Positions 409 to 34,453 of a DNA stretch of 64,000 bases are shown here, in pieces. Origin of the DNA: Eubacteriales bacterium (GTDB taxonomy: Bacteria; Bacillota; Clostridia; Oscillospirales; CAG-272). The stretch lies in NCBI GenBank assembly GCA_045630385.1, contig JAZQTA010000009.1, positions 3,465 through 67,464 of the forward strand, in the 5' to 3' direction. The notes below the pieces were generated by a model, which worked only from the letters and a program-made list of their open reading frames with translations, was not told the origin of the DNA and searched no databases. Position 1 is the stretch's first letter. The number at the start of each line of letters is the position of its first letter. Position numbers and translations under genes: made by a program.

Positions 409-438
409 GAATCAGAAAAACAATTTTTGGAGGGAAAA

Positions 439-1935
439 ATGAAAAGAATTTTCTTCTTACTTTTAACCGTTGCCCTGGCGCTCGTTGCGCTTACGGGCTG
501 TTTCGGTACCGAGAGCCACACGTACAGCTCCGATTGCGATCCTCTTTGCGACTGCTGTGCAACCCCCGTGATAAGAGACACGACAGGGTTCGACCACAAT
601 CGCGAGACCTGCGAGAGCACCGTCTGCTCCGTTTGCCAGACCGTGATCCTGCCCGCAACGCATCAGTATGAGAGTGACTGTGCTCCCAAGTGCTCCGTTT
701 GCCAAGCAATCCGCACCGACCTGAAGCACACCTACGCTACCGATTGCTCCACCGCATGCTCCGTTTGCGGCGAGAAGAGAGACGGCGTAGTTCACACCTA
801 CTCTCAGGCATGCGACGTTGAGTGTGACATCTGCAAGGAGATCCGCCCTGCTGAAGGCCTTGAGCATGCATGGCTTCACCCCTGCTCCACTCAGTGCACC
901 TACTGTGGCGCAACCCGTTCGGCAGAGCACGTATACGAGTTTGAGTGCTCCGTTGCTTGTATCTATTGCGGTGGCACCAGAGCTGTGGATGCCGAGAAGC
1001 ACGATTATGAATTCGGATGCAGCAGCACCTGCCGTACTTGTAATTATGTAAGAAAAGACAACGAACACGTTTACAGCAACGCTTGCGATCAGATCTGCGA
1101 TTACGGTTGCGGCCACCAGAGAGACGAGCAGCACGTATGGACCGGCATTTGCACCGACCAAAAGTGCGATGCCTGCGGTGCTACGAAGTCGGATAGCCAC
1201 GTAGATGCTGACGAAGACTACATTTGCGATGTATGCCGGAGCATTTACGATCACAAATGCTTCAACAATGATTCTCTTGACTGCGACCGCATCTGCGTAG
1301 TTGAAGGTTGCGGCAAGCCCGTTTCGGCACACAAATACGATTGCGATTGCGATGCGACCTGCGGTAACGAAGGATGCACCACCGGTGACAGAGTGGCTGC
1401 CGAGCACGAGCCCATTGCCGATTGCGGTACGGTTTGCCGTTACTGCGGTATAGCTCTTGAAGCTTCCGAGCCTGTTGCTCACACCTATGACGGTGAGTGC
1501 GATACCACTTGCAACAAATGCGGCGAAACAAGAAGCGTGACTGCACCCCACGTAGCCTCCGCTACCAAGGGATGCGGAATTTGCGATGTTTGCGGCGAGA
1601 ATACCGGCTTTACGCATTCCTATGATTCTGCTTGCTCCGCATTCTGCAATATTTGCGAGGCAAAGAACCCCACCGGCGGTCACGTAGGCCTCTACCTCTG
1701 CTCCACTGAGTGCAAGCACTGCGGCGCTGCACTGGATAGCATTCGTCACACCTTCGCTTACGATTGCTCGACTCGTTGCGCAATCTGCGGCGCACACGTA
1801 CGTACCGATGCAGCTGATGCTCACACCGATCTTGATGGTGACAAGGGTTGCGATATTTGCGGCGAGGCTCTGCCTACCACCGGCGAAGGCGTTCTTCCCG
1901 AACATACCATTCCCGCGAAGAAGGACGACGAATAA
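439..1935 (+). CDS. Cys-rich repeat lipoprotein, function unknown (paralog 1)
   Basis: The ORF track starts at 427 (TTG), but ATG 439 follows a GGAGGG RBS. Lipoprotein signal peptide MKRIFFLLLTVALALVALTGC. I count 62 Cys in 498 aa, almost all in triplets. About 17 units of H-x-[YF]-x3-C-x3-C-x2-C-G-x2-R. A strong terminator follows. Confidence 0.85.
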   Translation: MKRIFFLLLTVALALVALTGCFGTESHTYSSDCDPLCDCCATPVIRDTTGFDHNRETCESTVCSVCQTVILPATHQYESDCAPKCSVCQAIRTDLKHTYATDCSTACSVCGEKRDGVVHTYSQACDVECDICKEIRPAEGLEHAWLHPCSTQCTYCGATRSAEHVYEFECSVACIYCGGTRAVDAEKHDYEFGCSSTCRTCNYVRKDNEHVYSNACDQICDYGCGHQRDEQHVWTGICTDQKCDACGATKSDSHVDADEDYICDVCRSIYDHKCFNNDSLDCDRICVVEGCGKPVSAHKYDCDCDATCGNEGCTTGDRVAAEHEPIADCGTVCRYCGIALEASEPVAHTYDGECDTTCNKCGETRSVTAPHVASATKGCGICDVCGENTGFTHSYDSACSAFCNICEAKNPTGGHVGLYLCSTECKHCGAALDSIRHTFAYDCSTRCAICGAHVRTDAADAHTDLDGDKGCDICGEALPTTGEGVLPEHTIPAKKDDE

Positions 1936-1950
1936 TTCGTTAACGAGTTT

Positions 1951-1987
1951 ATGTCGTGACCACATTTCGTGGTCACGACATACTTTT
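1951..1987 (+). terminator. rho-independent terminator after paralog 1
   Basis: 13-bp perfect stem ATGTCGTGACCAC / GTGGTCACGACAT with a 5-nt loop, followed by ACTTTT. Confidence 0.75.
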
Positions 1988-2123
1988 CAATCGGATCTCT
2001 TCCTAATATTTATATAGGTTTTTAACTATTTATTTCCCTACTTGCTTTCTATCGTTCCTTCTTGTCGGCATGCGGCATGCCGCAAAAAATAAATGAAAGG
2101 ATGGATACTACATCCACAACGCT

Positions 2124-5036
2124 ATGAAAAGATTTTTATTCTGTACATTGACCGTTGTACTGATGCTCTTCGTTCTTGCAAGCTGCTTCGGTACAGAAAG
2201 CCATCGGTACACTGCTGATTGCTCTACAATCTGCGCCGACTGTAACGTCAAGATGCGTGACCCGTTGGTTGCGCACACCTATGACAGCTGTGCCGACCTT
2301 GATTGTAACGTATGCGGCGAAGAGCGCGAAATAACCGAGCATGAATACGCCGGTGTCTGCGCAACGAAATGCTCCGTGTGCGGCGCTGAACGTACCAACG
2401 AAAACAATCACAATTACGACAGCCCCTGCGACATCGATTGTAACGTTTGTAAGGAACCCAACAAAAACGTTTCCGAGCACGTTTACCAGAACGATTGCGA
2501 CACCGACTGCGAGTTCTGCGGTGCACAGAGAGTCACCGAGCACAAGTACACCAATGATTGTGACAAGGACTGTAACGTTTGCTCCGCGCTTAGAATTCCC
2601 AAGGCTCACGTTTACACCTATCCCTGCTCCCTCACCTGTAACGTCTGCGGCGCGGAGAACCCCGCACCTGCGGCTTGCCAATACTCCCACGCTTGCGATG
2701 CTGACTGTAACCTTTGCGGCACGCTCAGAAATGCCGCGGCGCACGTTTACGATCATGCCTGCGATGAGGACTGTAACGTCTGCGGCGAGGTAAGATCTGT
2801 CAACGATCACACTTACGACAACAGCTGCGACGCCGATTGTAACGCTTGCGGCACTCTCCGCGAAGGCGTGCACGCATTCGGTGCTTGGAGAACCAAGACG
2901 CCCGCAAGCTGCACCTCCGCTGAGATCCTCGTAAGATACTGCGCAGATTGCGGCGCAGAGGAGACGATGGATGGAGCACCTGCTCTTGATCACATCTTCA
3001 CCAACGATTGTGACGTACAGTGCAACCGTTGCAGCTACAAGAGAGAGATCAAGCACTCCTATGATACCGATTTCTCCGTTTACGTTCCCGTATCTTGCAC
3101 GACCGCAGAGATCCTTGAAAGATTCTGCTCCGTGTGCGGAGCGAGAGAAACCCAGATCGGCAAGGCCGCTCTCGGACACACCTACACCAACACCTGCGAT
3201 ACCACCTGTAACCGCGAGGGATGCGATTACGTCAGAGTGATCACGCACACCTTCGGCGAATGGGAAACTAAGACCATCGAAAACTGCGTGGATGATGAGA
3301 TCGAGCATCGCATCTGCTCTGTCTGCGGCGTAGAAGAAACCAGAACCGGCACTGCTGCTCTCGGTCACACGCCTTTGGCTACCGATTGCGAGATCTGCTC
3401 CGTCTGCGGCGAAGCAAGCGGCTTTGAGCATGGCTTTAGTGAATGGGGAACAAAAAAACCTGAGGATTGTTACAACGATGAGATTGAAAATCGCATCTGT
3501 TCCGTCTGTGGCGACGAAGAGACCAGAATCGGAACTGCCGCTCACGGACACGTTTATGCGGATGATTGCGATGCTATCTGCGAGCATGGATGCGGCTTTG
3601 AGCGTATCCCTCCCCACGTTTATGACGGCATTGAGGATCTCGTATGTAACGAATGCGGCCACAACCGTGAATGCACCGGACATCTTCCCTACGTAAAAGA
3701 CTGCACCATCTGCCGTATTTGCGGCAAAGCAAGCGGCTACGAGCATAGCTTTGGCGAATGGGAAACCAAGACATCTGAAAACTGCACCGATGCAGAGATC
3801 GAGCATCGCATCTGCTCCGTCTGCGGCGTAGAAGAAACCAGAACCGGCACTGCCGCTCTCGGTCACACGCCTTTGGCTACCGATTGCGAGATCTGCTCCG
3901 TCTGCGGTCAGGCAAGCGGCTTTGAGCATAGCTTCGGCGCATGGGAAACCAAGACACCCGCAAGCTGCACCGAGGATGAGATCGAGCGTCAGATCTGCTC
4001 TATCTGCCGCAAGGAAGCAACCAGAGTCGGCGACAAAGAAGCATTTGGCCACAGCTACGACAACAATTGCGACACCACTTGTAACACCTGCGGAACGTCG
4101 AGAACCGTAGAGCACGATTTCGAGGGTGTTGCATGGACAGAAAAGACACCTGCAGATTGCTTCAAAGCACAGATCCTTGCAAGAAAGTGCCTTGAATGCG
4201 GCGCTGAAGAAACCAAGGAAGGCATCGGCGCTCTTGGTCATACGCCTCTTGCAACCAATTGCACTGTCTGCGCAAGATGCGGCCAGCCGTCCGAAATCGA
4301 CCATGAATTTGGCGATTGGGTAACCAAGTCCGCGGCTGATTGCTACAATGCAGAGATCCTTCACAAGGTTTGCGGCAAGTGCGGCATCGCAAGCACGGAA
4401 ACCCAGGAAGGCGAACCGGCTCTCACGCATACCTACACGGATGCATGCGATGCCATTTGCGACCTTTGTAACACTTTTGAGCGTATTCCTCCTCACGAAT
4501 ACGCAGACGAGCATGACGTAAGCTGTGAGCTTTGCGGTGATGTTCGTGCCTGCACCGGCCACAAAGCATTGGCTAACAACTGCCTTGTTTGTGAATACTG
4601 CGGACAGGCAATTCCCGGTGCGGAACACTCTTACGCTTTCATTTGCGATACGGACTGTGATGTATGCGGTGCCACAAGAGCTGCGTCTCACTCGCCTTCT
4701 GCAGCAGATTGTACCGTTTGCCAGTACTGCGACCAAACCATTCCCGGCGCGGCTCACGTAGCACTCGAAACAGATTGCACCGTTTGTGCAAACTGTAACG
4801 CAGGCACCGGAAAAGCACATGAAGCAGATCCTCACAACTGTGTTGTATGTCAGCACTGCGGTAAGGCAAGCGGCAAAACGCATACGCCTAACACGGCAGT
4901 AAACTGCACACAGTGCGAGACCTGTGGCAAGAGCCTTGGCACTTCGCACACGGATGCGAACTCCGATGGTCACTGCGACAAGTGCCCGATGGAAACGCTT
5001 CCCGGCGAAAACTGGTACCCCTGGGCACCCCTTTGA
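2124..5036 (+). CDS. Cys-rich repeat lipoprotein, function unknown (paralog 2)
   Basis: Signal peptide with lipobox MKRFLFCTLTVVLMLFVLASC. The mature N-terminus CFGTESHRY matches paralog 1 (CFGTESHTY). I count 110 Cys in 970 aa, arranged as about 36 triplets of three module types. No canonical SD seen upstream of ATG 2124. Confidence 0.85.
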   Translation: MKRFLFCTLTVVLMLFVLASCFGTESHRYTADCSTICADCNVKMRDPLVAHTYDSCADLDCNVCGEEREITEHEYAGVCATKCSVCGAERTNENNHNYDSPCDIDCNVCKEPNKNVSEHVYQNDCDTDCEFCGAQRVTEHKYTNDCDKDCNVCSALRIPKAHVYTYPCSLTCNVCGAENPAPAACQYSHACDADCNLCGTLRNAAAHVYDHACDEDCNVCGEVRSVNDHTYDNSCDADCNACGTLREGVHAFGAWRTKTPASCTSAEILVRYCADCGAEETMDGAPALDHIFTNDCDVQCNRCSYKREIKHSYDTDFSVYVPVSCTTAEILERFCSVCGARETQIGKAALGHTYTNTCDTTCNREGCDYVRVITHTFGEWETKTIENCVDDEIEHRICSVCGVEETRTGTAALGHTPLATDCEICSVCGEASGFEHGFSEWGTKKPEDCYNDEIENRICSVCGDEETRIGTAAHGHVYADDCDAICEHGCGFERIPPHVYDGIEDLVCNECGHNRECTGHLPYVKDCTICRICGKASGYEHSFGEWETKTSENCTDAEIEHRICSVCGVEETRTGTAALGHTPLATDCEICSVCGQASGFEHSFGAWETKTPASCTEDEIERQICSICRKEATRVGDKEAFGHSYDNNCDTTCNTCGTSRTVEHDFEGVAWTEKTPADCFKAQILARKCLECGAEETKEGIGALGHTPLATNCTVCARCGQPSEIDHEFGDWVTKSAADCYNAEILHKVCGKCGIASTETQEGEPALTHTYTDACDAICDLCNTFERIPPHEYADEHDVSCELCGDVRACTGHKALANNCLVCEYCGQAIPGAEHSYAFICDTDCDVCGATRAASHSPSAADCTVCQYCDQTIPGAAHVALETDCTVCANCNAGTGKAHEADPHNCVVCQHCGKASGKTHTPNTAVNCTQCETCGKSLGTSHTDANSDGHCDKCPMETLPGENWYPWAPL
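3258..3430 (+). repeat. intragenic duplication, copy 1
   Basis: About 173 bp matching 3756-3928. The 113-bp core (3297-3409 vs 3795-3907) differs at only 2 positions by my reading. Offset is 498 bp, or 166 codons. Confidence 0.8.
3756..3928 (+). repeat. intragenic duplication, copy 2
   Basis: See copy 1. Both encode FGEWETKT..ENC..(D/A)EIEHRICSVCGVEETRTGTAALGHTPLATDCEICSVCG.ASGFEH. Confidence 0.8.
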
Positions 5037-16019: not shown

Positions 16020-16052
16020 AAAAAAGAGGCCGCGAACAAAAGCCGCGGCCTC
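16020..16052 (-). terminator. terminator of the surface-protein operon
   Basis: GAGGCCGCG (16026-16034) / CGCGGCCTC (16044-16052). On the minus strand the hairpin is followed by TTTTTT (A-run 16020-16025). Confidence 0.75.
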
Positions 16053-16071
16053 CAAAAAACTATTCTATTTT

Positions 16072-19000
16072 TTATTTAGATCGACAATAAACCCATTCCT
16101 GAACATTGGATATATCACCACCATTGCTCATCGCAGTCTTCGATTCAAGATTATTCGTAACCTTCTGATATGTGTATACTTTTTCATAATCAACATAACT
16201 ACTCAAATTGCACTCAAATCTAAAGAATCTCGATGTTCCCATACCGTCCTTCGTACTCGTGCTTTTAGGCAAAATACTATGGCAATTATAACCCATAATA
16301 CCCTTGTCATAACAATAGTCTTTATCCACAGCAGGGCAATTTACGGTAGACTTTATCGCATAGAAGTATATATACGCGCGACCATTAAAGGTGCCTTTTA
16401 CATTCGAAATCGCTCTATTGGTACCTTGTGCATATGCCACATTATACATCCAATGCCAGTAAATCCAACCGTCTCGGCTATTAGTTACAACTCGCTTGGT
16501 GCTTCCGTTATCATATCCTTCGTATGGAGCCTTAGCAAATTCTTTATAATACTTGTTCGCGGTATCATATCCCGTCGGGAAAGATGCATAATTTATGGAG
16601 CCGGATCCGGTTTCTCTCCACGTTTCATTGATTTTCGTCCATCCGGACATGGATGCATTGGTAGATTCGGTTGTTTCAGTCTTCGTATACGTCCACTTTC
16701 TATCAACGACCTGTGCTCCGGAGGGAATCTCCGATGCTTTTACCCAAACCGCAGCTTTTTGTTCCCAACGTGCAGTAATTGTCAGATTCGCTGCAGATCC
16801 GGGCTTGGTGGAAGCAGAAACAGCATTTCCATTCGCATCATACCAACCAAGGAAATTATGATAATCTCGCTTGGGCGTAGGCAACGTGCCAAGAGTATCA
16901 CCAAAGGTGAGCGTCTTAGTTCCGGGCGAAACCGTTCCGCCATTCGCATTGTAGGTAAGTGTGAATTTCTTGGGAGTCCAGCTTGCATATACTGTAAGAT
17001 TGGTTGCAGAGCTCGGCACAGTAGATGCCGAAACCGCCGTCCCGTTCGAAAGCTTCCATCCCGCAAAATCATAATTTGCTTTCGTGGGTGTCGGCAATGT
17101 TCCAAGACTATCGCCAAAGGTAAGAGTTTTAGACCCGGGAGAAACAGAACCACCTTTCGCATCGTAGGTCAGCGTAAACGTCTTGGGAGTCCAGTTTGCA
17201 TAAATCGTAAAGTTAGCGGCAGTGCCAGGCTTCGAAGATGCATTTACTGCTGTTCCATCCGAGAGGCGCCAACCTGCAAAATTATAGTTAGCACGCGTAG
17301 GTGTAGGCAACGTGCCCAATGCATCTCCAAAGGTCAAGGTTTTAGAAGAAGGAGATACCGAACCACCATTTGCATCGTAGGTTACGGTAAACGTTTTAGG
17401 CGTCCAATGTGCATACAATGTTTGATTTGCAAGTGCGGTTACAAACGTTTCTGCAGTTATCTGCGTACCGCCACTTGCCGCCGTATACCATCCGGCGAAA
17501 TTATAATTTGCTCTCGTGGGAGTCGGAAGCGCACCGAATGCTTGATTGTAGTATACGGTTTTTGAAGTCTCGGATACACTGCCTCCATTCGCATTGAACG
17601 TAACGGTGCTGGAGGTCAGCATGTTATTGAAGGTTGCCTCATCAATCTGCTGAACGCCCTTCGATGCCGTCAGCATACCATCGTTCACAGCAGATCCGCA
17701 AAGGTAATATTTACCGGTTACTTTCAGATATCCGGCAACCCCTGCATCCAATTTTCCAAAGGTCACGTTTTTGCTGATAACCGTGTTTTCGCTTTTGGAG
17801 CTTAAAATAATTTCTCCATACAACTTAACCTGCGTATTGGCCGCCTTCATGATAATCGCAAAGCCGGGGGCGTTTTCCACCGTTACGCGCGCAAGCTTTA
17901 CAGTCGCAGAAGCGAATTCCAACGGCGTATCCACATTACCAACAAGCTTCATGTTGCTGATGAAGGTTTCTGCCGCATCGGATTTAATGCTGAGATTTGT
18001 GAACGTCTTTCCTCCGCCGAACAAAGCAAAATATTCCGTAGAATCAGAAATAACGATCTTCTCACCATCGAAGGAATCCGTCATTTTGGTCAAATCCAAG
18101 GTGATTCTCTTTGCACCGGAATTCAAGATCGCCTTTGCAACTTCCTCATTTTTTGCCATAGCACTGATTTCCGCACAGCCCGCAAAAGCGGTGGTTCCGA
18201 TACTTTCCACAATGTTATCAATTGAAAAAGCCTTCAGCGAAGTGCACCCCTTAAACGCATTATCGCCAATGTGCGTTACACCGTATGCAACCACGCTCTC
18301 GAGATTTGTGCACCCCTCAAAGGCGTTGGCAGGAATTTCGGTGATATAAAGAGGCAAAATCACAGTTTTGATCTCGGTGTTTCCGCGGAAAGCGTTTGCG
18401 CTGATTGCCTTAGTCTGATATGCAGAATAAGTGTTATCTCCGTTGTTTACCGAATAGTACTGCGGAATAGATACTACGCCATCAAAGCCTTCGGGTGCAT
18501 CAAAACCGGTAATCGTGCCATCCAAATTCACTTCAAGGCCTTCCGTTCTACCGGTTACACCAACGATATACTCATTTACCTCATAAGGAATTTCAAACGA
18601 AACAACGCCGTTCTCACAATCGTTAAAGTTTGCGTTATCCTTGGAATAATCCAAATACTCATGTCGTTCGTCGTCAAGAACGCTAAACGAATACGTATAA
18701 TACGAACCCGTTGCAACGTCATATCCAACCACGCCATATACATGAACGGTTCCCGCCATTACAAGACGGTAATAACCTTCCGCATCTGCAGTATACTTTT
18801 TGCTCCATGATTTTTTCTCCGAGCTTCCTGCCGAATACTTTACGGAGGATTGATACTCGTTACGCTCGAGTTCCTCTTCATTGACGGATGCAGTCTTGCT
18901 GTTTTGCCCCCCCAGCGCTTCCGTCAAATTATAGCTGGTTTTTTTCAAAATCTCAGAAGAAATAGCGTTGGCAATCTGAGAATTTACACTTACCTCTTGG

Positions 19001-21207
19001 CTCTTTTCGTATCCCTCTTCGGAACCCCAAGAGTTCGAATTATTCTCCACCGTATTGTAATAAGAGGAGGAATCACTGGTATTTACCGTGCCGACATAAG
19101 TTGACACATGACCATCTGCGTGTTCAGCCTCATGCGTCTTTCTACCGGAAGCCGCCTCAGCCCCCACGGTCGTCGTATTTTTAACACCGGCACTTACTTT
19201 TGCGACCTTTACCGGAAGAGAGATACCCGCCTCTACTTCAGTTGTATTTTGCACACTTACCTTTGCATCTGCATAAGTGTCTTTGGTCTTATCATAGGAT
19301 TGATTGATACCAACAGACTGATCTCTTGTAACCTTAGAGGACGAAGAATGAGATCCACCCGATTCGTTACTAACGTACGTTGAACCACTGCTACTGTTGC
19401 TGACGAAATAATTACCACCAACCGTGTTACCTTCGGAGTCGGTTCTTTCCTCACTCTTTATCTGCAAATCTTGGTTTTCTTCTTCTTCAAAATAAATTTG
19501 ATTCCAATCCTCAGACAACGTCCAACCGGAGCTTCGCGTGGTCGCATTAGAAATAGAATTTGCAATGGTTTCAGCCTGTTCGCTGGTAATCGTTTCCGTG
19601 TATTCAAAATTAACCGTCATATCAAGCTTTTGATAATTGCCAATATAACCTATTTGATAGAGCGGCACATTATCAATTCGCCCGATATTATAAACAAACA
19701 AGAATTGTCCGGTTTTGTCATCCTCTATGATAACCGGAGCACCATAATCACTATAGCTCGTCGCTCTGTTTCTATTAGACGTCCAGTTTGCGTGAAGAGT
19801 TATATTACCGATAGTTCCTTCTTTTATTCTGGAAACAATGAAACCATCATTATTTGACCAACCAACGAAGGTATAACCGTACCACGAAGGGCTTATCAGT
19901 GTCGCACCCGTGTCTATCGTATATTTAATGCTTTCCACAGGAACATCAGGCGAATCGAAGGTTATCGTATATTCTACCTTTTCCCATTGCGCATAAAGCT
20001 TCTTATTTCCGGTGGTGCCGGGCGCAATCTCGGATACCTGCGTTCCATCACTGGTTTTCCATCCTCTGAATATATATCCGGGAGACTCCAAATCTTCAAG
20101 TTGCGCGCCAATCTCGGATACATAAGATGTGGGGTTGTTATTTACCACACCGACAGATGCTAAATATGTATCGCTTACGAACAAATCGTACGAAATGCTG
20201 TAATTTGTTCCCGAAATCATGGGGATCACATCTTGCTTTACAAGCACCTCTTGGCAAATGTCGCAGTGCGATCCTTGAGTAAGACCTGTACTCGTTTGCG
20301 TTGCAGGAATTGCTTCATCAATCACCGCATTGTGTCCGCTTGAGAGAATCGTAGTTTCATTTCTCTCTATTTGATTATTGCAAGCCTCATCGCTATAAAT
20401 TCTTCCGCAGGCTTCGCAATACCAAAACTCGATTTGACCGTCTTCTGTACAAGTAACATCCTTCGCGGCGCTGTGAATCAGCACATGCTTACAAACATTT
20501 CCGCGGTAAAGCTCGATATCACCCCATCCGGCAACATATCTAAAGAGAGCAACGGCATCCTTGGTTGTAACTTTATTATCGCCGTTTACGTCCAGTGCCA
20601 CAGAATCCACTTCAACGTTCCAACCCGCCACGTAGCGGAACAAAAGAATGGCATCCTTCGTATTCACCTTGGAATCCCCATCGATATCGCCGGGCAAACC
20701 ATGATAGATTCTGATATTGCCATTCACAACCGTCAAGCCGACAGGTCTCTCATTTTCATCGTATATATCATTTTGATCGAAGTGAACATTTATATCAGCA
20801 ACATAGTTATCCGGAGCGTTCTTTGCTACAACAAAAGTCAGTACGGCAAACTGTCCCTCAGCATGCATCTCCTCCAAAGGGCTGATCATCGTAATGGAAA
20901 GCGGATTATTATAAAGCTCCGCCGCAGCAACGTATGAACCAAATGCGGGATTAAATTCAACCGCTTGCAACGTCAACACATTGGAATCATACGCAACATC
21001 GAATTTAAGCGATGTCAGGCCGGGGTTGTTTTTGAGATCAAGAACAATCTTTACTTCATCCCCGGGAACTGCAGTTTTAGAAGCTACAGACAGCGTCATA
21101 CTCTTGTCGGATGGTAATTCCGATGCAAAAATGGTCAAAGGTAACGCGCACAGAAGCATTACCATAGAAAGAACGAACGCGATAATGCGTGAAAAATCTT
21201 TTTTCAT
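16072..21207 (-). CDS. giant secreted cohesin + dockerin + LRR + Listeria-Bacteroides-repeat surface protein
   Basis: 1711 aa. Signal peptide aa 1-29. Cohesin-like module aa ~36-168 (NNPGLTSLKFDVAYDSNVLTL). Two dockerin F-hand repeats aa ~172-228 (GDIDGDSKVNTKDAILLFRYVAGW / LDVNGDNKVTTKDAVALFRYVAGW). Cys module aa ~239-320. Flg_new-type repeats aa ~335-476 and ~1199-1482 (GY.F.GW...LYA.W). BspA-type LRR aa ~905-1015. Unassigned modules at aa ~484-880, ~1020-1195 and ~1483-1711. No LPXTG, SLH or C-terminal TM. Confidence 0.9.
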   Translation of the reverse strand: MKKDFSRIIAFVLSMVMLLCALPLTIFASELPSDKSMTLSVASKTAVPGDEVKIVLDLKNNPGLTSLKFDVAYDSNVLTLQAVEFNPAFGSYVAAAELYNNPLSITMISPLEEMHAEGQFAVLTFVVAKNAPDNYVADINVHFDQNDIYDENERPVGLTVVNGNIRIYHGLPGDIDGDSKVNTKDAILLFRYVAGWNVEVDSVALDVNGDNKVTTKDAVALFRYVAGWGDIELYRGNVCKHVLIHSAAKDVTCTEDGQIEFWYCEACGRIYSDEACNNQIERNETTILSSGHNAVIDEAIPATQTSTGLTQGSHCDICQEVLVKQDVIPMISGTNYSISYDLFVSDTYLASVGVVNNNPTSYVSEIGAQLEDLESPGYIFRGWKTSDGTQVSEIAPGTTGNKKLYAQWEKVEYTITFDSPDVPVESIKYTIDTGATLISPSWYGYTFVGWSNNDGFIVSRIKEGTIGNITLHANWTSNRNRATSYSDYGAPVIIEDDKTGQFLFVYNIGRIDNVPLYQIGYIGNYQKLDMTVNFEYTETITSEQAETIANSISNATTRSSGWTLSEDWNQIYFEEEENQDLQIKSEERTDSEGNTVGGNYFVSNSSSGSTYVSNESGGSHSSSSKVTRDQSVGINQSYDKTKDTYADAKVSVQNTTEVEAGISLPVKVAKVSAGVKNTTTVGAEAASGRKTHEAEHADGHVSTYVGTVNTSDSSSYYNTVENNSNSWGSEEGYEKSQEVSVNSQIANAISSEILKKTSYNLTEALGGQNSKTASVNEEELERNEYQSSVKYSAGSSEKKSWSKKYTADAEGYYRLVMAGTVHVYGVVGYDVATGSYYTYSFSVLDDERHEYLDYSKDNANFNDCENGVVSFEIPYEVNEYIVGVTGRTEGLEVNLDGTITGFDAPEGFDGVVSIPQYYSVNNGDNTYSAYQTKAISANAFRGNTEIKTVILPLYITEIPANAFEGCTNLESVVAYGVTHIGDNAFKGCTSLKAFSIDNIVESIGTTAFAGCAEISAMAKNEEVAKAILNSGAKRITLDLTKMTDSFDGEKIVISDSTEYFALFGGGKTFTNLSIKSDAAETFISNMKLVGNVDTPLEFASATVKLARVTVENAPGFAIIMKAANTQVKLYGEIILSSKSENTVISKNVTFGKLDAGVAGYLKVTGKYYLCGSAVNDGMLTASKGVQQIDEATFNNMLTSSTVTFNANGGSVSETSKTVYYNQAFGALPTPTRANYNFAGWYTAASGGTQITAETFVTALANQTLYAHWTPKTFTVTYDANGGSVSPSSKTLTFGDALGTLPTPTRANYNFAGWRLSDGTAVNASSKPGTAANFTIYANWTPKTFTLTYDAKGGSVSPGSKTLTFGDSLGTLPTPTKANYDFAGWKLSNGTAVSASTVPSSATNLTVYASWTPKKFTLTYNANGGTVSPGTKTLTFGDTLGTLPTPKRDYHNFLGWYDANGNAVSASTKPGSAANLTITARWEQKAAVWVKASEIPSGAQVVDRKWTYTKTETTESTNASMSGWTKINETWRETGSGSINYASFPTGYDTANKYYKEFAKAPYEGYDNGSTKRVVTNSRDGWIYWHWMYNVAYAQGTNRAISNVKGTFNGRAYIYFYAIKSTVNCPAVDKDYCYDKGIMGYNCHSILPKSTSTKDGMGTSRFFRFECNLSSYVDYEKVYTYQKVTNNLESKTAMSNGGDISNVQEWVYCRSK
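16762..17613 (-). repeat. four tandem diverged coding repeats of ~71-72 codons (Flg_new / Listeria-Bacteroides repeat type)
   Basis: Protein aa ~1199-1482: TF(T/N)..Y(D/N)ANGGSVSP.SKTLTFGD.LGTLPTPT.ANY.FAGW......AV.AS......N.T.YA.WTPK repeated. DNA copies are clearly related but diverged. Confidence 0.85.
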
Positions 21208-21245: not shown

Positions 21246-22565
21246 TTATTCAACGACAAAAACAAAACCGTTGATTACTTCAAACGCAATGGGCTCGAAA
21301 TCCTCGTCATATACCTCATCAATATACATGCCCAGTCGGATTTCCAATACGTCTCCAACCTCGAGCGTTTGCGGAATTTCAAAGTGCAACGTAGCAAACG
21401 TACCGTTTTCACTAACCTCAACAAGCGGGCTGATACATGTCAGCGGTTGCGGATTATTATACGGTGTCGGCGCAGTCACATACACGCCAAATGAAGAATC
21501 AAATACTACGTTCTGCAAGGTCAGACTTTCATCATATAAAACATCGAATTTTAAAGATGCAATACCCGGATTGTTGAAGAGCGAAATCACGACTTCAACG
21601 TCACCATCCCCAACCTTTGCAAATGCATCCTCTACCACAATCGCGGGACCGGCAATATCTCTTTCATATTGCGCAAATATTTCAACATCCTCTGTAATCC
21701 TATCATACGCCTTATCCCAACCAACAAATCGGAAGCCTTGTCTCGTCGGATTCGAAGGAGGGGTAGCGCTCTGCCCTGATTCAACCGTTTCGGTTTTTAT
21801 CACCGTACCGTCAAAATCTTTAAAAAGCACCACATACGTGCTTGGCGAGGCGTTGGCGCGATAAACCGCGGTCACCGTCTGATTCGCTACAATATTAATA
21901 TACGATCCATCCCAACCAACGAATTCATATCCCGCTCTGCTCGGTGCTTGAGGGGGCGTTGCATCGCCGCCTTGATCAACCAGCTGTGTTTTCAAAACCG
22001 TTCCATCGTAATCCTTGAAGGTGACGGTATACTGTACCACTTCGACAGAATTCGCTTCAAACTGCGCTTGATACGTGACGTCAGAGAGCACGGGGGCAAT
22101 TTGCGGCGTCCAACCGATAAAGGTGTATCCTGCTTTTACAGGAGTGACACCGTTGTATGTAGGTGTTGTTCCCTTGGGCACCTTCAAATCGGTTTCGAGC
22201 ACGGTATCTCCGTTTTTCCAAATAACCGTATATTCTTCGGGTGCTATATACGTAACGGCGTTGCTCCAATCACTGTTCGTGTAATTCACTCCGTCACCGA
22301 TGGCGCGAATCTTAAAAGTTTGGCCGTTCGTCAGTTTCCTGCTCGTCGTGGTGTTTTCCACGGAGAGAATCTCGCCATCAATGCTAATTTCAAATTTGTT
22401 CGCGACCGTATTCGCGCCCCACGATGCTGTGTCTCCCGAAAGAGTCACCCATGGAGCAGAAAGCTTCGTCGGTACTGTATTTCCGCCGCCACCGCATGCA
22501 ACAAGGCTCAAAATACAGGCAAAAAGAAGCCCGAATGCGAATATACGCAATACTTTCTGTTTCAT
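21246..22565 (-). CDS. lipoprotein with Listeria-Bacteroides repeats and a C-terminal cohesin-like module
   Basis: 439 aa. Lipobox ...ILSLVAC(24)GGGG. Three or four Flg_new-type repeats (GYTFIGW, GYEFVGW, GFRFVGW). C-terminal aa ~307-439 are paralogous to the N-terminal module of the giant protein (NNPGIASLKFDVLYDESLTLQNVVF..FG.YV.A...YNNP). RBS AGGAGGAAC. Confidence 0.88.
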   Translation of the reverse strand: MKQKVLRIFAFGLLFACILSLVACGGGGNTVPTKLSAPWVTLSGDTASWGANTVANKFEISIDGEILSVENTTTSRKLTNGQTFKIRAIGDGVNYTNSDWSNAVTYIAPEEYTVIWKNGDTVLETDLKVPKGTTPTYNGVTPVKAGYTFIGWTPQIAPVLSDVTYQAQFEANSVEVVQYTVTFKDYDGTVLKTQLVDQGGDATPPQAPSRAGYEFVGWDGSYINIVANQTVTAVYRANASPSTYVVLFKDFDGTVIKTETVESGQSATPPSNPTRQGFRFVGWDKAYDRITEDVEIFAQYERDIAGPAIVVEDAFAKVGDGDVEVVISLFNNPGIASLKFDVLYDESLTLQNVVFDSSFGVYVTAPTPYNNPQPLTCISPLVEVSENGTFATLHFEIPQTLEVGDVLEIRLGMYIDEVYDEDFEPIAFEVINGFVFVVE

Positions 22566-22595: not shown

Positions 22596-22622
22596 TACGC
22601 CTATTACTATAATAGATGTACA
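22596..22622. repeat. inverted repeat, left arm (27 bp)
   Basis: TACGCCTATTACTATAATAGATGTACA. It is the exact reverse complement of 22754-22780. Confidence 0.95.
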
Positions 22623-22634
22623 AACGATGAACTT

Positions 22635-22662
22635 ATTATAGCACTCCTTTTAAAAAATACAA
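22635..22662 (-). promoter_or_regulatory. sigma-A type promoter of the surface operon, inside the IR-bracketed segment
   Basis: Minus strand reads TTGTAT (22662-22657), 16 nt, then TGcTATAAT (-10 = 22640-22635). It points toward ATG 22565. Confidence 0.6.
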
Positions 22663-22753
22663 GCGCTTTTTTTAGAAAAATACATTTTTTCTTTTTATTT
22701 TTGTGAAATAAGACAAACTTTCTGTTAATAATTTATTAGTGTTGTACAAGAGA

Positions 22754-22780
22754 TGTACATCTATTATAGTAATAGGCGTA
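22754..22780. repeat. inverted repeat, right arm (27 bp)
   Basis: TGTACATCTATTATAGTAATAGGCGTA. Perfect complement of the left arm, with a 131-bp spacer. Confidence 0.95.
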
Positions 22781-22914: not shown

Positions 22915-22966
22915 GCAAAAAAAATGCCGTTGTTCTCCTTTTTTAGCAGAGAACAACGGTATTTTT
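22915..22966. terminator. bidirectional terminator downstream of nahK
   Basis: CCGTTGTTCTC (22927-22937) / GAGAACAACGG (22949-22959), flanked by an A-run (22914-22924) and ATTTTT (22961-22966). Confidence 0.75.
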
Positions 22967-23048: not shown

Positions 23049-24146
23049 TTATTTTGCGTATTTTTCGACAATCTTATGCATTTCGGGAAGTGCCTTTTCC
23101 ATATCGGATACGAGCTTGAACTGATTTCTTGCGCGGTCAAGATTGTGTCCTTCACGGCTGGTGCGGAAGTAGGTATCGCCCTGCAGATAGTCCGCAAGGA
23201 AGCGCTCGCCGCACTCCAGCGTCATCATGATCGCCGCCTCGGGCAGATAGGAGATCTCCGCATCGGTAAGACCGCCGGCCGCGCCCTCCAAAAATCCCTT
23301 TACGTAAATTTCGAAGAGGCCGATATCAAAGTTAACCTTCGAAAGATCCGTTTCATCCTCAAGCGCGGTGGTGGCGCCGAAGCGGATGGAATCACCGAAA
23401 TCGTTGATCGCATAGCCGGGCATGATGGTGTCCAGGTCGATGATGCAGATGGGGTTACCCGTGCGCTTATCGAAGAGAATGTTGTTAAGCTTGGTGTCGT
23501 TATGCGTTACGCGGAGCGGAAGCTTGCCTGCGGCGTATGCATCCTCGAAAAGATGCATGAAGCCCTCGCGCGCCTCTACGAAAGCGATCTCCTCCTTAAC
23601 GGATGCCGCTCTTCCCTTCACGTCGGCGGCAAGCGCTTCCTTGAACTGACGGAAGCGATCGGGCGTATTGTGGAAATTCACGATGGTCTCCACGAGAAGA
23701 TGCGCGGGGAAATCGCGAAGAAGCGCCTGGAAGTTACCAAACGCAACCCCGCTCTGATAGAACTGCTCAGGGTTCTCCACCTTATCGAAGCTTGCGCTGT
23801 CTACGATAAAGAGCGTTGCGCGCCAAAATTCGCCGTTCTCATCCTCGTAGAAATTCTTTCCGTCCACCGTCTTAACGAGGGTGAGCGTTTCGCGCAGAGC
23901 ATCGCCGCCGCGCGCAAGAATGTTCTTGCGAAGATGCTCGGTGACGAGCGCATAGTTGCCCATCAGACCTGCGGGATCCTTAAACACACGCTTATTGATC
24001 TTCTGAAGAATGTAGTGACGCTCCTTTTCGCCATCCTTGCAGATAACGAGGTGCGTTTCATTGATGTGGCCGTTGCCGTAAAGCCCGGTGCTCACGACCT
24101 CACCCTCGAAGGTGAAGGCTTTTGTAATATGGGGAAGCTGATTCAT
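23049..24146 (-). CDS. nahK: N-acetylhexosamine 1-kinase (NahK/LnpB-like, APH-fold phosphotransferase)
   Basis: 365 aa. Close motif-by-motif resemblance to Bifidobacterium NahK as I remember it: YG.GHIN.T, YILQ.IN..VF, NFH.TPDRF..F..ALAAD, LRVTHNDTKLNNIL, IIDLDTIMPG, DFGDSIRFGATTALEDE.DLSKV.F, TLECG.RFLADYLQGD.YF. Confidence 0.85.
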   Translation of the reverse strand: MNQLPHITKAFTFEGEVVSTGLYGNGHINETHLVICKDGEKERHYILQKINKRVFKDPAGLMGNYALVTEHLRKNILARGGDALRETLTLVKTVDGKNFYEDENGEFWRATLFIVDSASFDKVENPEQFYQSGVAFGNFQALLRDFPAHLLVETIVNFHNTPDRFRQFKEALAADVKGRAASVKEEIAFVEAREGFMHLFEDAYAAGKLPLRVTHNDTKLNNILFDKRTGNPICIIDLDTIMPGYAINDFGDSIRFGATTALEDETDLSKVNFDIGLFEIYVKGFLEGAAGGLTDAEISYLPEAAIMMTLECGERFLADYLQGDTYFRTSREGHNLDRARNQFKLVSDMEKALPEMHKIVEKYAK

Positions 24147-31725: not shown

Positions 31726-32553
31726 TCATTCCTTGCGGGACGCGCGATACGCCGTGGGAGAAAGGCCTGTCTGCTCCTTGAAAAACCTGGAAAAATAGTT
31801 CTGATCCTCGCATCCGACCGCAAGCGCGATCTCCAGCACCGAAAGATCCGTGCTATCCAGCATGTTTTTGGCTCGCTCGATGCGCAAGCGGCACATATAA
31901 GCATGCGCAGATACACCCGTCACCGCGCGGAAAAGATGCGCGAAATATCCAATGCTGTAATTGCATTCCCTCGCAAGCGCCTCGATCGAAAGCTTTTTAT
32001 CCATATCGGCATACATGCGCTCGATCGCCCTCTGCACGCGCTTCTGCTTTTTCTCGTCGATCTGCGAGCGAGAACGCTCCACGCCGCGCGCAAGCAAGCC
32101 GAGAACCGAAAGGAGAAGGCCGCCCGTGATCGCCTCGTGCGCCGTCTGCGAGAGCGAATACTCGCGTATCATCTGTGAAAAAAACCATTCAAGCTCGCGG
32201 CTGTTCGATGCCTCGCCCACCGTGATATCCCAAAGGCCGAGGGAGCGCAAGACCGCCTCCGCATCCCGTCCCGTGAAATGAATATAATAGGAAAACGAGC
32301 CGCTATCCGCCTCAAAATAATACTCCTGCCGCTCTCCCGGGCGAAAAAGGATGAAGCGCCCCGCAGGGACGACCGCTTCTCCTTCCGAAAAAACGACGTG
32401 ACACGCGCCGCGCACGATATACAGAATATGATAATCCACACGCCCATACGGACGAACGCATCCGCGCCGCAGATGCTCCACGCGATTTTCACCGCAGGAA
32501 TTGAGAACCAGGGAAGCCGCATCCGATATGCGTTCTGTGCTAACCAGTGCCAT
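31726..32553 (-). CDS. AraC-family transcriptional regulator (cupin + HTH)
   Basis: 275 aa. N-terminal AraC-type cupin (HILYIVRGACHV) and C-terminal HTH (CEDQNYFSRFFKEQTGLSPTAYR). Divergent from the 32729 gene. Confidence 0.88.
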   Translation of the reverse strand: MALVSTERISDAASLVLNSCGENRVEHLRRGCVRPYGRVDYHILYIVRGACHVVFSEGEAVVPAGRFILFRPGERQEYYFEADSGSFSYYIHFTGRDAEAVLRSLGLWDITVGEASNSRELEWFFSQMIREYSLSQTAHEAITGGLLLSVLGLLARGVERSRSQIDEKKQKRVQRAIERMYADMDKKLSIEALARECNYSIGYFAHLFRAVTGVSAHAYMCRLRIERAKNMLDSTDLSVLEIALAVGCEDQNYFSRFFKEQTGLSPTAYRASRKE

Positions 32554-32728
32554 AAAAAAGCCTCCGCATTATTTGCTTTTCGTTATAATTATAGTATAAA
32601 ACCGTCGTTCTGTCAATATTTCAGCACACAAATAAAGCAGAAAAATCCATAAAGTGATGTGTTTTTTTCATATACAAGAAAAGGAAAACGCGGTACAATA
32701 AAAGAAAAAAAACACGGAGGCTTTTTAT

Positions 32729-34453
32729 ATGAATCCCGAAAGCTACGTTATATCCCACACGATATCCCCTATGAAGCGAATTTTTGACGGCACGATGCCG
32801 ACCGAAGACTTCACCTATATTTCGGGCATGAGAAACGAGCCTCTCGCCTTCTCGCTCGCTTACCGCTCCTCCGCAGAAAAGCGAAGCGGCATTCTCGCTA
32901 CCGATACCCCGATCGCCGTGCGCGTGACCTCCGCGCTCCCCGTATCCGTATACAAGGTTTGCAAGGTGCCCTATGCCGCCTCCGAATGCGAGGATGCGCA
33001 TGCGGGCGCAGTGGGCGGCTGCCCCGATATGCTTCTGCCGCGCATTGCCGCGCCCGAGATCATCCACTTGCCGCTGGATAAGAACTTCCCATATTACGAA
33101 AAAGACCAGCGCAATACATTGAACGCCTCGTGCTTTGCAACGCAGAGCGTTTTCATCCAGGTGAATGAGGATGGCGTCGACTGCCCTGCAGGTGACCACG
33201 CCGTGACGGTGGAGGTGATCGGCCTTATGAGCGGCGACGTGCTTTCTACCCATACGGTGACCGTGCATTTAGTGGACGCCGCGCTTCCCGAAAGCGATTT
33301 GATCCTCACCAACTGGTTCCATCAGGACTGCCTTGCAGACATCACGCACCGACCGCTTTACAGCGATGCATATTTCGAAATTTTAGAGAAATATTTGTGC
33401 GAATATGTCAAAAATGGAATGAACACTTTACTTTTCCCTGCATTTACGCCGCCGCTTGACACGCCGATAGGGATCGAGCGCATGAACGTGCAGCTCGTGA
33501 AGGTGAAGGTTTTGGACGACGGATATGCATTTGATTTTTCTCTTGCGGAACGGTTTGTCCGGGTGGCAAGGAGAGCGGGCGTGCGCACGCTGGAGCACAC
33601 GCATCTTTTCTCCCAATGGGGTGCAAAATATGCCATCACAATCTATGCAGAAAAGGATGGAGAGGAGGTTCGCCTCTTCAATTACGAAACGCCTGCGGAC
33701 TCGGAGGAATACGTTGCGTTTCTTGACGCCTATCTTTCCGCCTTCCGAGAATTCATCAAGAGGATGGAAATTGAAAACGATATTCTCTATCATATCTCCG
33801 ACGAGCCCGTGCTCGAAAATATCGAGGGCTACCGCCGCGCAAAGAATCTGATGCGCTCGATCTTCCCGAACGGAAAATTTGCCGACGCCTTGGACGATTA
33901 TGCATTTTTCGAGGAAGGGCTTGTAGAAACGCCCATCGTGAACGCAGGGAGCGTGCAAAACTACGAGGGGCGCTGTGACAGCTTTATGATCTACTACACG
34001 GGCGGCTCGCTGGTTCCAAACATAATCAACCGCCTGCTTCCGAGCGCACCGCAAAAAACGCGTGCCCTCGGCTACGTGCTGTTCGGTTACAACGCGAAGG
34101 GATTTTTACATTGGGCGTACAACAACTACTACGGTCGCCTTTCCAACGGAATCTTCCATCCCGCACAGGATCCCTGCTTCTACAAAAACTATCCCGGCGT
34201 GACCTACCTCGTTTATCCCGACACGGACGGCTCGCCTCTTCCCTCCCTGCGCGAAAAGCAGATGCTTGCCGCCACGCTTGACTATCGTGCTCTGCGCCTT
34301 CTTGAAGGCCTCGTCGGGCGAGAGAAGACAGTCGCACTCTGCGAAAAAATCCTCGGCGAGAGGATCAGCGTGACCGCAGTTCCAAGCGAAGGAGATACGA
34401 TCCTTTCCCTGCGCGAAGCAGTCAATAAAAAAATCGAAGAAGCACTTCGATAA
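32729..34453 (+). CDS. DUF4091 / GH123-like putative glycoside hydrolase
   Basis: 574 aa, no signal peptide. The overall layout and the LYHISDEP acid pair resemble DUF4091/GH123 proteins as I remember them. Assignment not verified. Confidence 0.5.
   Translation: MNPESYVISHTISPMKRIFDGTMPTEDFTYISGMRNEPLAFSLAYRSSAEKRSGILATDTPIAVRVTSALPVSVYKVCKVPYAASECEDAHAGAVGGCPDMLLPRIAAPEIIHLPLDKNFPYYEKDQRNTLNASCFATQSVFIQVNEDGVDCPAGDHAVTVEVIGLMSGDVLSTHTVTVHLVDAALPESDLILTNWFHQDCLADITHRPLYSDAYFEILEKYLCEYVKNGMNTLLFPAFTPPLDTPIGIERMNVQLVKVKVLDDGYAFDFSLAERFVRVARRAGVRTLEHTHLFSQWGAKYAITIYAEKDGEEVRLFNYETPADSEEYVAFLDAYLSAFREFIKRMEIENDILYHISDEPVLENIEGYRRAKNLMRSIFPNGKFADALDDYAFFEEGLVETPIVNAGSVQNYEGRCDSFMIYYTGGSLVPNIINRLLPSAPQKTRALGYVLFGYNAKGFLHWAYNNYYGRLSNGIFHPAQDPCFYKNYPGVTYLVYPDTDGSPLPSLREKQMLAATLDYRALRLLEGLVGREKTVALCEKILGERISVTAVPSEGDTILSLREAVNKKIEEALR

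Follow-up and report, generated by a model that had tools for sequence, protein, structure and literature searches.

The question raised by this locus is whether a short DNA segment that is bracketed by perfect inverted repeats, and that carries a promoter pointed at genes for surface proteins, is turned over by a site-specific recombinase. The segment lies in a stretch of 64,000 nucleotides from a Eubacteriales bacterium (assembly GCA_045630385.1, contig JAZQTA010000009.1, positions 3,465 to 67,464 of the forward strand); the whole of this 64-kb stretch is called the window here, and positions are counted from its first letter. A preliminary description had proposed that the 185-bp unit at 22596-22780 is a candidate phase-variable switch, or inverton, seen in its ON state. 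This proposal was upheld: the anatomy of the unit, the match of its repeats to a family of recombination sites, the linkage of that family to a tyrosine recombinase, the covariation of the site centres, the geometry of the promoter, and the inversions found in related loci all make it very probable that this is a promoter flipped by a recombinase, assembled ON and in control of a cohesin/dockerin surface operon.

Architecture of the unit

The unit was resolved into four features, the last two of them on the minus strand.

22596-22622, no strand assigned: gene-proximal recombination site (27-nt arm); perfect inverted repeat, 0 mismatches to ACRYCTATTRNNNYAATAGRYGT.
22754-22780, no strand assigned: gene-distal recombination site (27-nt arm) with its core at 22757-22779; perfect inverted repeat, core match.
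22623-22753, minus strand: 131-bp invertible promoter cassette, ON as assembled; assigned from the sequence, from a size class and promoter position as in 89 of the 93 family units described below, and from its alignment to the reverse complement of the C-D cassette of the related locus L003.
22635-22662, minus strand: extended -10 promoter, read directly; the predicted transcription start is near 22628.

Both arms are 27 nt long, they are 100% complementary to each other, and 131 nt lie between them, which reproduces the coordinates and the perfect repeat of the preliminary description. The left arm reads TACGCCTATTACTATAATAGATGTACA, and its exact reverse complement occupies 22754-22780. A check for further copies of the 27-mer, run within the window, returned none, even when three mismatches were allowed; two 27-mer matches appeared in 0 of 100 shuffles, and the unit is the sole long, perfect, and widely spaced inverted repeat of such size in the 64 kb. 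The proximal arm contains a dyad-symmetric core of 23 nt (22597-22619), composed of TACGCCTATTA and TAATAGATGTA on either side of a central CTA. The central 7 nt of the distal arm are the exact reverse complement of the proximal centre (7/7), and the start-to-start spacing of the two is 160 nt. Both arms agree without a single mismatch with the 23-nt family motif ACRYCTATTR-NNN-YAATAGRYGT (ACRYCTATTRNNNYAATAGRYGT), which was found nowhere else in the 64 kb, and the T and ACA that flank the window arms also agree with the family consensus, which extends there.

The promoter had been described as TTGTAT, 16 nt, and TGcTATAAT inside the bracketed segment, aimed at a lipoprotein gene, and this is literally correct on the minus strand. 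The -35 hexamer TTGTAT lies at 22662-22657 and is followed by a 16-nt spacer with the TG at 22643-22642 and by the -10 hexamer TATAAT at 22640-22635. Then come 12 nt, the proximal repeat, a ribosome-binding site (RBS; AGGAGG, 22579-22574), and the ATG at 22565, so that the RBS and start codon of the lipoprotein gene do stand just past the left repeat. The -10 hexamer ends 15 nt from the core motif, which equals the modal geometry of the family.

Homologous operons with and without a switch

Since the window species is known from a single NCBI assembly, homologues of the lipoprotein were examined instead (loci are cited by their numbers). One of them, L003, is the closest homologue of the operon: its lipoprotein is 56% identical to that of the window and is encoded at the head of a comparable cohesin/dockerin/LRR operon. 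This operon is directly preceded by a gene for a 309-aa tyrosine recombinase with Phage_int_SAM_3 and Phage_integrase domains, and the 445-bp spacer between the recombinase gene and the operon contains four copies (A-D) of a sequence closely like the window repeat. Copies C and D form a 19-nt perfect inverted repeat with 135 nt between them and a spacing of 158 nt, and the cassette that they enclose carries TTGAAT-17-TGaTATAAT directed away from the gene, i.e. OFF. The window cassette, read in the direction of its gene, aligns with the reverse complement of L003 C-D, with an equal distance from the -10 hexamer to the site; the two homologous operons thus hold the cassette in opposite orientations.

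The four sites of L003 (7567-7957; also in L004 and L006) delimit two successive invertible cassettes, of which A-B carries TTGATT-17-TACAAT and C-D carries TTGAAT-17-TATAAT, both facing away from the operon. Site B can also be paired with D (88% over 32 nt), and the whole resembles a double or nested switch. Further double units of this kind were seen in L015, L016, L021, L025, L058, L079, and L163.

In L001 (region 1-340) and L002 (region 1-190), the lipoprotein homologue is 58% identical and is preceded, at an equal distance from the ATG, by the promoter TTGTAT-17-TGtCATAAT, which has no flanking repeats. Close to the RBS of these two loci, a GAGAGATGTACA stretch resembles half a site and may be a site remnant.

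A family of sites linked to a tyrosine recombinase

The recombinase of L003 belongs to a highly conserved family, in which more than 120 protein clusters are 77-100% identical to it and come from metagenome-assembled genomes (MAGs) of Oscillospiraceae, Ruminococcaceae, and Clostridia. When it was searched against species-representative (GTDB) genomes, 75 loci were retrieved, in which the site motif sits just past the recombinase stop codon and then again, mostly 137-160 nt downstream, and is nearly absent from the remaining ~700 kb of these loci. In the reverse direction, a metagenome scan that used the DNA motif pair alone gave 119 loci, 47 of them with full-motif inverted pairs, and a recombinase homologue adjoins 43 of these 47. 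The recombinase-first and the motif-only searches agree, and the association of site and recombinase therefore holds both ways. Together, the family comprises 93 distinct units with the site as inverted pairs, all from MAGs and metagenomes of gut and rumen Clostridia. Directly after the 3' end of a recombinase gene stand 72 of the 93 units, while 13 lie 130-2500 nt further downstream; the units of L042 and L047 are 2.4-2.5 kb away from the recombinase. For a few units, the flanks at hand contain no recombinase (in L141, a locus with long flanks, none lies within 2-4 kb). The window departs from the usual arrangement, in which the recombinase gene is immediately upstream and the first site at most ~120 nt from its stop codon, and has nahK, the gene of N-acetylhexosamine 1-kinase, in that place instead. 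It would be a remote unit served in trans.

A strong promoter of the extended -10 type (TTGAcw-17-TGnTATAAT) is present in 89/93 units, and in 79/93 the distance from the end of its -10 hexamer to one site is 13-16 nt. The start-to-start spacing of the sites, which ranges over 128-191 nt, falls into classes of ~129, 137-140, 146-151, and 157-160 nt; the last class is the largest (28/93 units) and includes the window with its 160 nt. The steps of ~10.5 bp between classes suggest a helical-phase requirement for synapsis, with the limit that the units are phylogenetically related, so that the classes are an observation and not a statistical result.

An identical 27-mer was not found among the family loci; the closest, at three mismatches, are L085, L186, and L021, whose recombinases share 62% (L085 and L186) and 72% (L021) identity with the query. 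A recombinase locus in NCBI, L204, has family sites, but these differ from the sites of the window.

Genes downstream of the family units are often those of surface proteins and share the domain types of the window's own (Flg_new, LRR_5, collagen-like, Big_2, cadherin-like, camelysin, and pilin); ResIII/SNF2 helicases, SPFH zinc-ribbon proteins, and FtsK-like ATPases are among the other products. The cytoplasmic targets include a 1080-aa ResIII/helicase with HA domains (L115, L127, L166, L192, and L197), SNF2/ResIII proteins (L025 and L027), and SPFH proteins with zinc ribbons (L023 and L136). The helicase/nuclease-type targets may be phase-variable phage-defence genes.

Two further observations concern the recombinase-linked loci. 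In 56 of the 72 recombinase-adjacent units, the promoter faces the 3' end of the recombinase gene, an orientation that is antisense to the recombinase and in which the downstream gene is OFF; the state of the population, antisense feedback on the recombinase, and assembler bias are candidate causes. Recombinase homologues (53-69%) at L028, L033, L060, L070, L071, and L075 lie on contigs binned as Bacteroidales, Bacteroidaceae, Prevotella, Muribaculaceae, Elusimicrobiaceae, and Acidiphilium, for which mis-binning is more likely than spread across phyla by the alternative route of horizontal transfer.

Inversion in related loci

Recombination of the sites is indicated both by their sequences and by related assemblies. 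The 7-nt centres of partner sites are exact reverse complements in every listed pair except L030 (5/7), and they vary from locus to locus (TCA, GGTAT, GTGTA, TTACA, and others); such covariation is the signature predicted for a strand-exchange region. Three pairs of near-identical contigs from different samples differ by a clean inversion alone: (i) L042 and L047 have flanks that are 100% and 97.5% identical, and an inner segment of 127 nt that is 99.2% identical only as reverse complement; (ii) the inner segments of L125 and L101 are 100% identical as reverse complement; and (iii) those of L114 and L107 are 96% identical as reverse complement, with the arms swapped. Each of these pairs has kept the outer arms of the sites and exchanged the inner ones, which places the crossover inside the centre. 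The comparison of orientation across related assemblies, which the preliminary description had put forward as a check, therefore yielded opposite orientations in L042/L047, L101/L125, and L107/L114, that is, in relatives and not at the window locus.

Traces of inversion within one sample were also seen. The recombinase of L003 is also encoded on the contigs L007 and L008, both of which terminate in a hybrid site: the left half of B is joined there to that of A in reverse complement. This is the very junction to be expected from an A x B inversion within one sample, and beyond it L008 runs on into the recombinase 3' end, read as reverse complement. A palindromic contig such as L008 is what a de Bruijn assembler produces when one sample holds both orientations. 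Many contigs break at or just past the sites. Many of the genome and metagenome contigs among L010-L084 stop within the switch, 0-300 nt past the recombinase gene, and such invertons seem to fragment short-read assemblies systematically.

This behaviour of assemblers bears on the explanation that the window unit is itself an artefact, namely a chimeric or palindromic join, since related contigs do misassemble at the sites (L008 is palindromic, and many others break there). Against this, the window is continuous and non-palindromic, its unit has unique flanks (nahK and a terminator on one side, the RBS and an intact gene on the other), and the same architecture recurs in ~90 independent assemblies. 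We regard an artefact as a negligible prospect.

The same comparisons speak to a second alternative, raised as a caveat in the preliminary description, in which the unit is a 185-bp non-autonomous transposon resembling a miniature inverted-repeat transposable element (MITE), with terminal repeats of ~25 bp and a TA duplication hidden in its ends. Its size and terminal repeats are typical of such elements, and the homologous locus in L001/L002 is without repeats. The absence of a target-site duplication, which had been noted at the flanks, turned out not to be decisive, because the repeat starts and ends with TA and a TA duplication would be concealed inside it. However, the unit is present in one copy in 64 kb; the sites are linked to a tyrosine recombinase and not to a transposase (72/93 units; 43/47 in the motif-only search); related units vary by inversion between identical flanks and not by presence or absence; and the internal promoter keeps a fixed distance from the site throughout the family. 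Moreover, the distance from promoter to start codon in the window is that of the repeat-free homologue, so the promoter is not obviously foreign. The recombinase linkage, the inversion polymorphism, and the conserved promoter leave the MITE-like caveat unsupported, and we consider such an element extremely improbable.

The operon predicted to be controlled and its insulation

The surroundings of the unit were mapped as follows.

21246-22565, minus strand: first controlled gene, a 439-aa lipoprotein with the lipobox LVAC, Flg_new (Listeria-Bacteroides) repeats, and a weak C-terminal cohesin-like domain.
16072-21207, minus strand: second controlled gene, a 1711-aa secreted protein with an N-terminal cohesin and a dockerin, BspA-type LRR_5 repeats, and Flg_new repeats.
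16025-16053, minus strand: strong intrinsic terminator that closes the two-gene operon; 11-pair stem with 8 GC pairs, then a T-run.
22920-22966, no strand assigned: bidirectional terminator; 18-nt stem (94%; inverted repeat I2) between an A-run and a T-run.
23049-24146, minus strand: nahK (N-acetylhexosamine 1-kinase), upstream neighbour outside the switch; E 1e-93 to solved N-acetylhexosamine 1-kinases.

The name "cohesin lipoprotein", given to the first gene in the preliminary description, stood only in part: the cohesin match of the lipoprotein is weak (E 0.0023; 18.6 bits, below the cut-off of 24.1), and a clear cohesin (E 3e-10) together with a dockerin is found at the N-terminal side of the 1711-aa protein encoded by the second gene. 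The bidirectional terminator beyond the unit was recovered at 22920-22966, with the A-run and the T-run flanking its stem. As for nahK, which occupies the place that the recombinase gene has in related loci, its identity was confirmed, whereas its description as convergent was not: the gene lies on the minus strand, runs in the direction of the operon, and is convergent just relative to a flipped promoter. Transcription of nahK ends at the bidirectional terminator, so the operon is insulated from read-through and the sole evident promoter is that inside the bracketed segment; a promoter scan between the terminator and the ATG found no other.

These facts also allow a static role of the repeats to be weighed, be it as operators of a looping repressor, as a DNA cruciform, or as an RNA hairpin, in each case without recombination. 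Each arm is itself a dyad, as an operator would be, and a single strand of the unit folds into a 27-bp stem (-32.2 kcal/mol, z = -7.2). However, a transcript from the internal promoter holds one arm only, and the long hairpin cannot form in this mRNA, while the terminator at 22920-22966 blocks any read-through that could include both arms. Operators need no covarying, reverse-complementary asymmetric centres, and the inversions with arm exchange and the linkage to a recombinase stay unexplained as well. The remark that the unit could simply be a long hairpin thus found no support, and a static element appears very unlikely.

Arguments against switching at the window locus

Several results weigh against the reading of the window unit as an active promoter switch. 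The exact 23-mer of the window repeat has no match in the species-representative genome collection, and exact-protein look-ups of the window lipoprotein and NahK returned no other contig and hence no second orientation of the window locus. No recombinase of any type was found in the 64 kb by Pfam searches of every called gene or by tblastn with the family recombinase, which gave nothing significant. The -35 hexamer is weak, agreeing with TTGACA at 3/6 positions, for which reason a consensus promoter scanner skipped the window promoter. The inner 131 bp are ~0.62-0.64 identical to other cassettes in either orientation, a level comparable to the ~0.6 of unrelated AT-rich cassette pairs, and no homology to the family cassettes was detectable beyond the promoter and the sites. 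Finally, promoter activity and a transcription start near 22628 are predictions from the DNA sequence, and the flipping of this locus in its own organism is something that we infer.

The lack of a recombinase in the window, which confirms what the preliminary description had said of tyrosine and serine recombinases, means that the enzyme must act in trans and be encoded elsewhere in the genome, where it is presumably present. It also gives rise to the only serious rival, a locked or fossil switch, that is, a true family unit whose cognate recombinase has been lost or was never present, so that its promoter is fixed ON and ordinary. Such a state would fit the absence of a recombinase from the 22 kb and 41 kb that flank the unit, the fact that 72/93 units adjoin a recombinase, remote units being a minority, and the operon of L001/L002, which has a fixed promoter in the same position without flanking repeats. 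On the other hand, the sites of the window are intact (27/27, 0 consensus mismatches, complementary centres), and decay would be expected of unselected sites; recombinase-distant units do exist, and those of L042 and L047 were seen in both orientations. We consider a locked switch unlikely and favour the recombinase-flipped promoter.

Proposed mechanism

The sites of the window would be simple core sites of a tyrosine recombinase, in which two arms of ~10 bp (ACRYCTATTR) are inverted around a short asymmetric centre. The recombinase, acting in trans from elsewhere in the genome, would pair both sites, exchange strands within the centre, and thereby flip the 131-bp cassette. In the ON orientation, transcription from the extended -10 promoter is predicted to cross the proximal site, to enter the lipoprotein gene and that of the 1711-aa protein, and to stop at 16025-16053, and the terminator of nahK would shield the operon from upstream read-through. 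In the predicted OFF orientation, the promoter would fire the opposite way, and the bidirectional terminator would stop the transcripts after ~200-300 nt. A clonal population would then be a mix of cells with and without the displayed surface complex.

Relation to known systems

This kind of system, an inverton phase switch, is already familiar, and the window unit adds a further member to it. Like the window unit, the invertons of gut bacteria known from surveys of the PhaseFinder type consist of a short intergenic promoter segment between inverted repeats and control genes of surface proteins. They also resemble the family in having a nearby tyrosine recombinase in most members and mixed orientations in populations, whereas the window unit has no adjacent recombinase. 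In a study of the hCom2 community, an "inverton group 139" of Clostridia was linked to a tyrosine recombinase/integrase group (PMC11892184). The two examples quoted from it have inner segments of ~206 and 228 nt, compared with 105-137 nt here, a comparison by length only, and the family motif does not occur in the examined text of the supplements of PMC11892184. The Clostridia inverton group of that study and the RecV switches of Clostridioides difficile are functionally the closest systems.

In C. difficile, RecV-dependent switches govern cwpV, the flagellar flgB, pdcB, and others (PMC2784873, PMC9286219, PMC12282940). As in the family described here, the host belongs to the Clostridia, a single tyrosine recombinase acts in trans on several short segments at remote places, and segments of 150-200 bp between repeats of ~20-30 bp precede genes for surface structures or motility. 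The family cassette differs in that it contains a complete extended -10 promoter, whose distance from a site is fixed at 13-16 nt. Several C. difficile switches act via terminators or effects of the 5' untranslated region and not by carrying a promoter, and, to our knowledge, their repeats are unrelated in sequence to the family sites.

The fim switch of Escherichia coli is alike in that a tyrosine recombinase (FimB/FimE) flips a promoter cassette and turns a surface structure ON or OFF. The element concerned, fimS, is 314 bp long, has 9-bp repeats, and needs IHF and Lrp. The family sites are built like those of Xer/dif and Cre/loxP, with two inverted arms of ~10-11 bp, a short asymmetric centre, and a total of ~23-27 bp, and the family recombinase shares with the Xer and Cre types the possession of SAM-like and catalytic domains only. 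Unlike the sites of Xer/dif and of Tn1549/Tn916, those of the family are inverted pairs 128-191 nt apart, which gives inversion and not dimer resolution or integration.

The nearest solved relative of the family recombinase is the catalytic domain of Tn1549 Int (6EN0, E 1e-17). The N-terminal arm-binding domain of the Tn916/Tn1549 Int proteins appears to be absent from it, judging by its 309 aa against the 317 residues of solved Int chains without this domain, which itself was not searched for. The recombinase reaches 21-24 bits with the NCBIfam models for "tyrosine-type DNA invertase" (cut-offs 221-222), 71 with XerC (cut-off 335), and 60 with XerD (cut-off 330), and is far below the XerA cut-off, too; by these scores it is not a member of the FimB/E family.

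No description of the site motif was found in the literature searched. We tentatively propose, with slightly less than even confidence, that the window switch belongs to a large and so far undescribed family of invertons in gut and rumen Clostridia (Oscillospiraceae, Christensenellaceae, and relatives). The features observed for it are a dedicated, highly conserved 309-aa recombinase related to Tn1549 Int, a dif-like core site of 23-27 bp, spacing classes, a portable promoter cassette, remote units served in trans, and double switches.

Other features of the window

Two further regions of the window deserve mention. The open reading frame (ORF) at 2124-5036 (plus strand) encodes a large lipoprotein of Cys-rich repeats (HxYxxxCDxDCNVCG...) and has no Pfam or Rfam match; the ORF at 427-1935 (plus strand) has no Pfam match on either strand. 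The opposite strand of the Cys-rich region contains equally long ORFs of 500 and 945 aa, which are spurious. The lack of Pfam matches on either strand had suggested that 427-5036 might be an rRNA operon, an idea that was dropped, since Rfam found nothing there and the region encodes Cys-rich repeat lipoprotein(s).

The second region holds an imperfect inverted repeat (33 nt, 73%) at 32555-32587 and 32694-32726, with 106 nt between its arms, in the divergent intergenic region of genes for an AraC-type regulator (31726-32553, minus strand) and a GH123 glycosidase (32729-34453, plus strand). The repeat at 32555-32726 probably reflects two mirrored RBS and leader regions.

Significance

The 23-nt consensus together with a recognisable recombinase amounts to a read-free annotation of such switches in uncultured Clostridia, where MAG assemblies display one arbitrary orientation and often break at the sites. 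The site and its recombinase could also serve as a compact invertase/site pair for engineering. For the organism itself, if the window unit is indeed a recombinase-flipped promoter, a cohesin/dockerin/LRR surface complex would be switched heritably and reversibly, which would be bet-hedging of the kind employed against host immunity, phages, or changing substrates.

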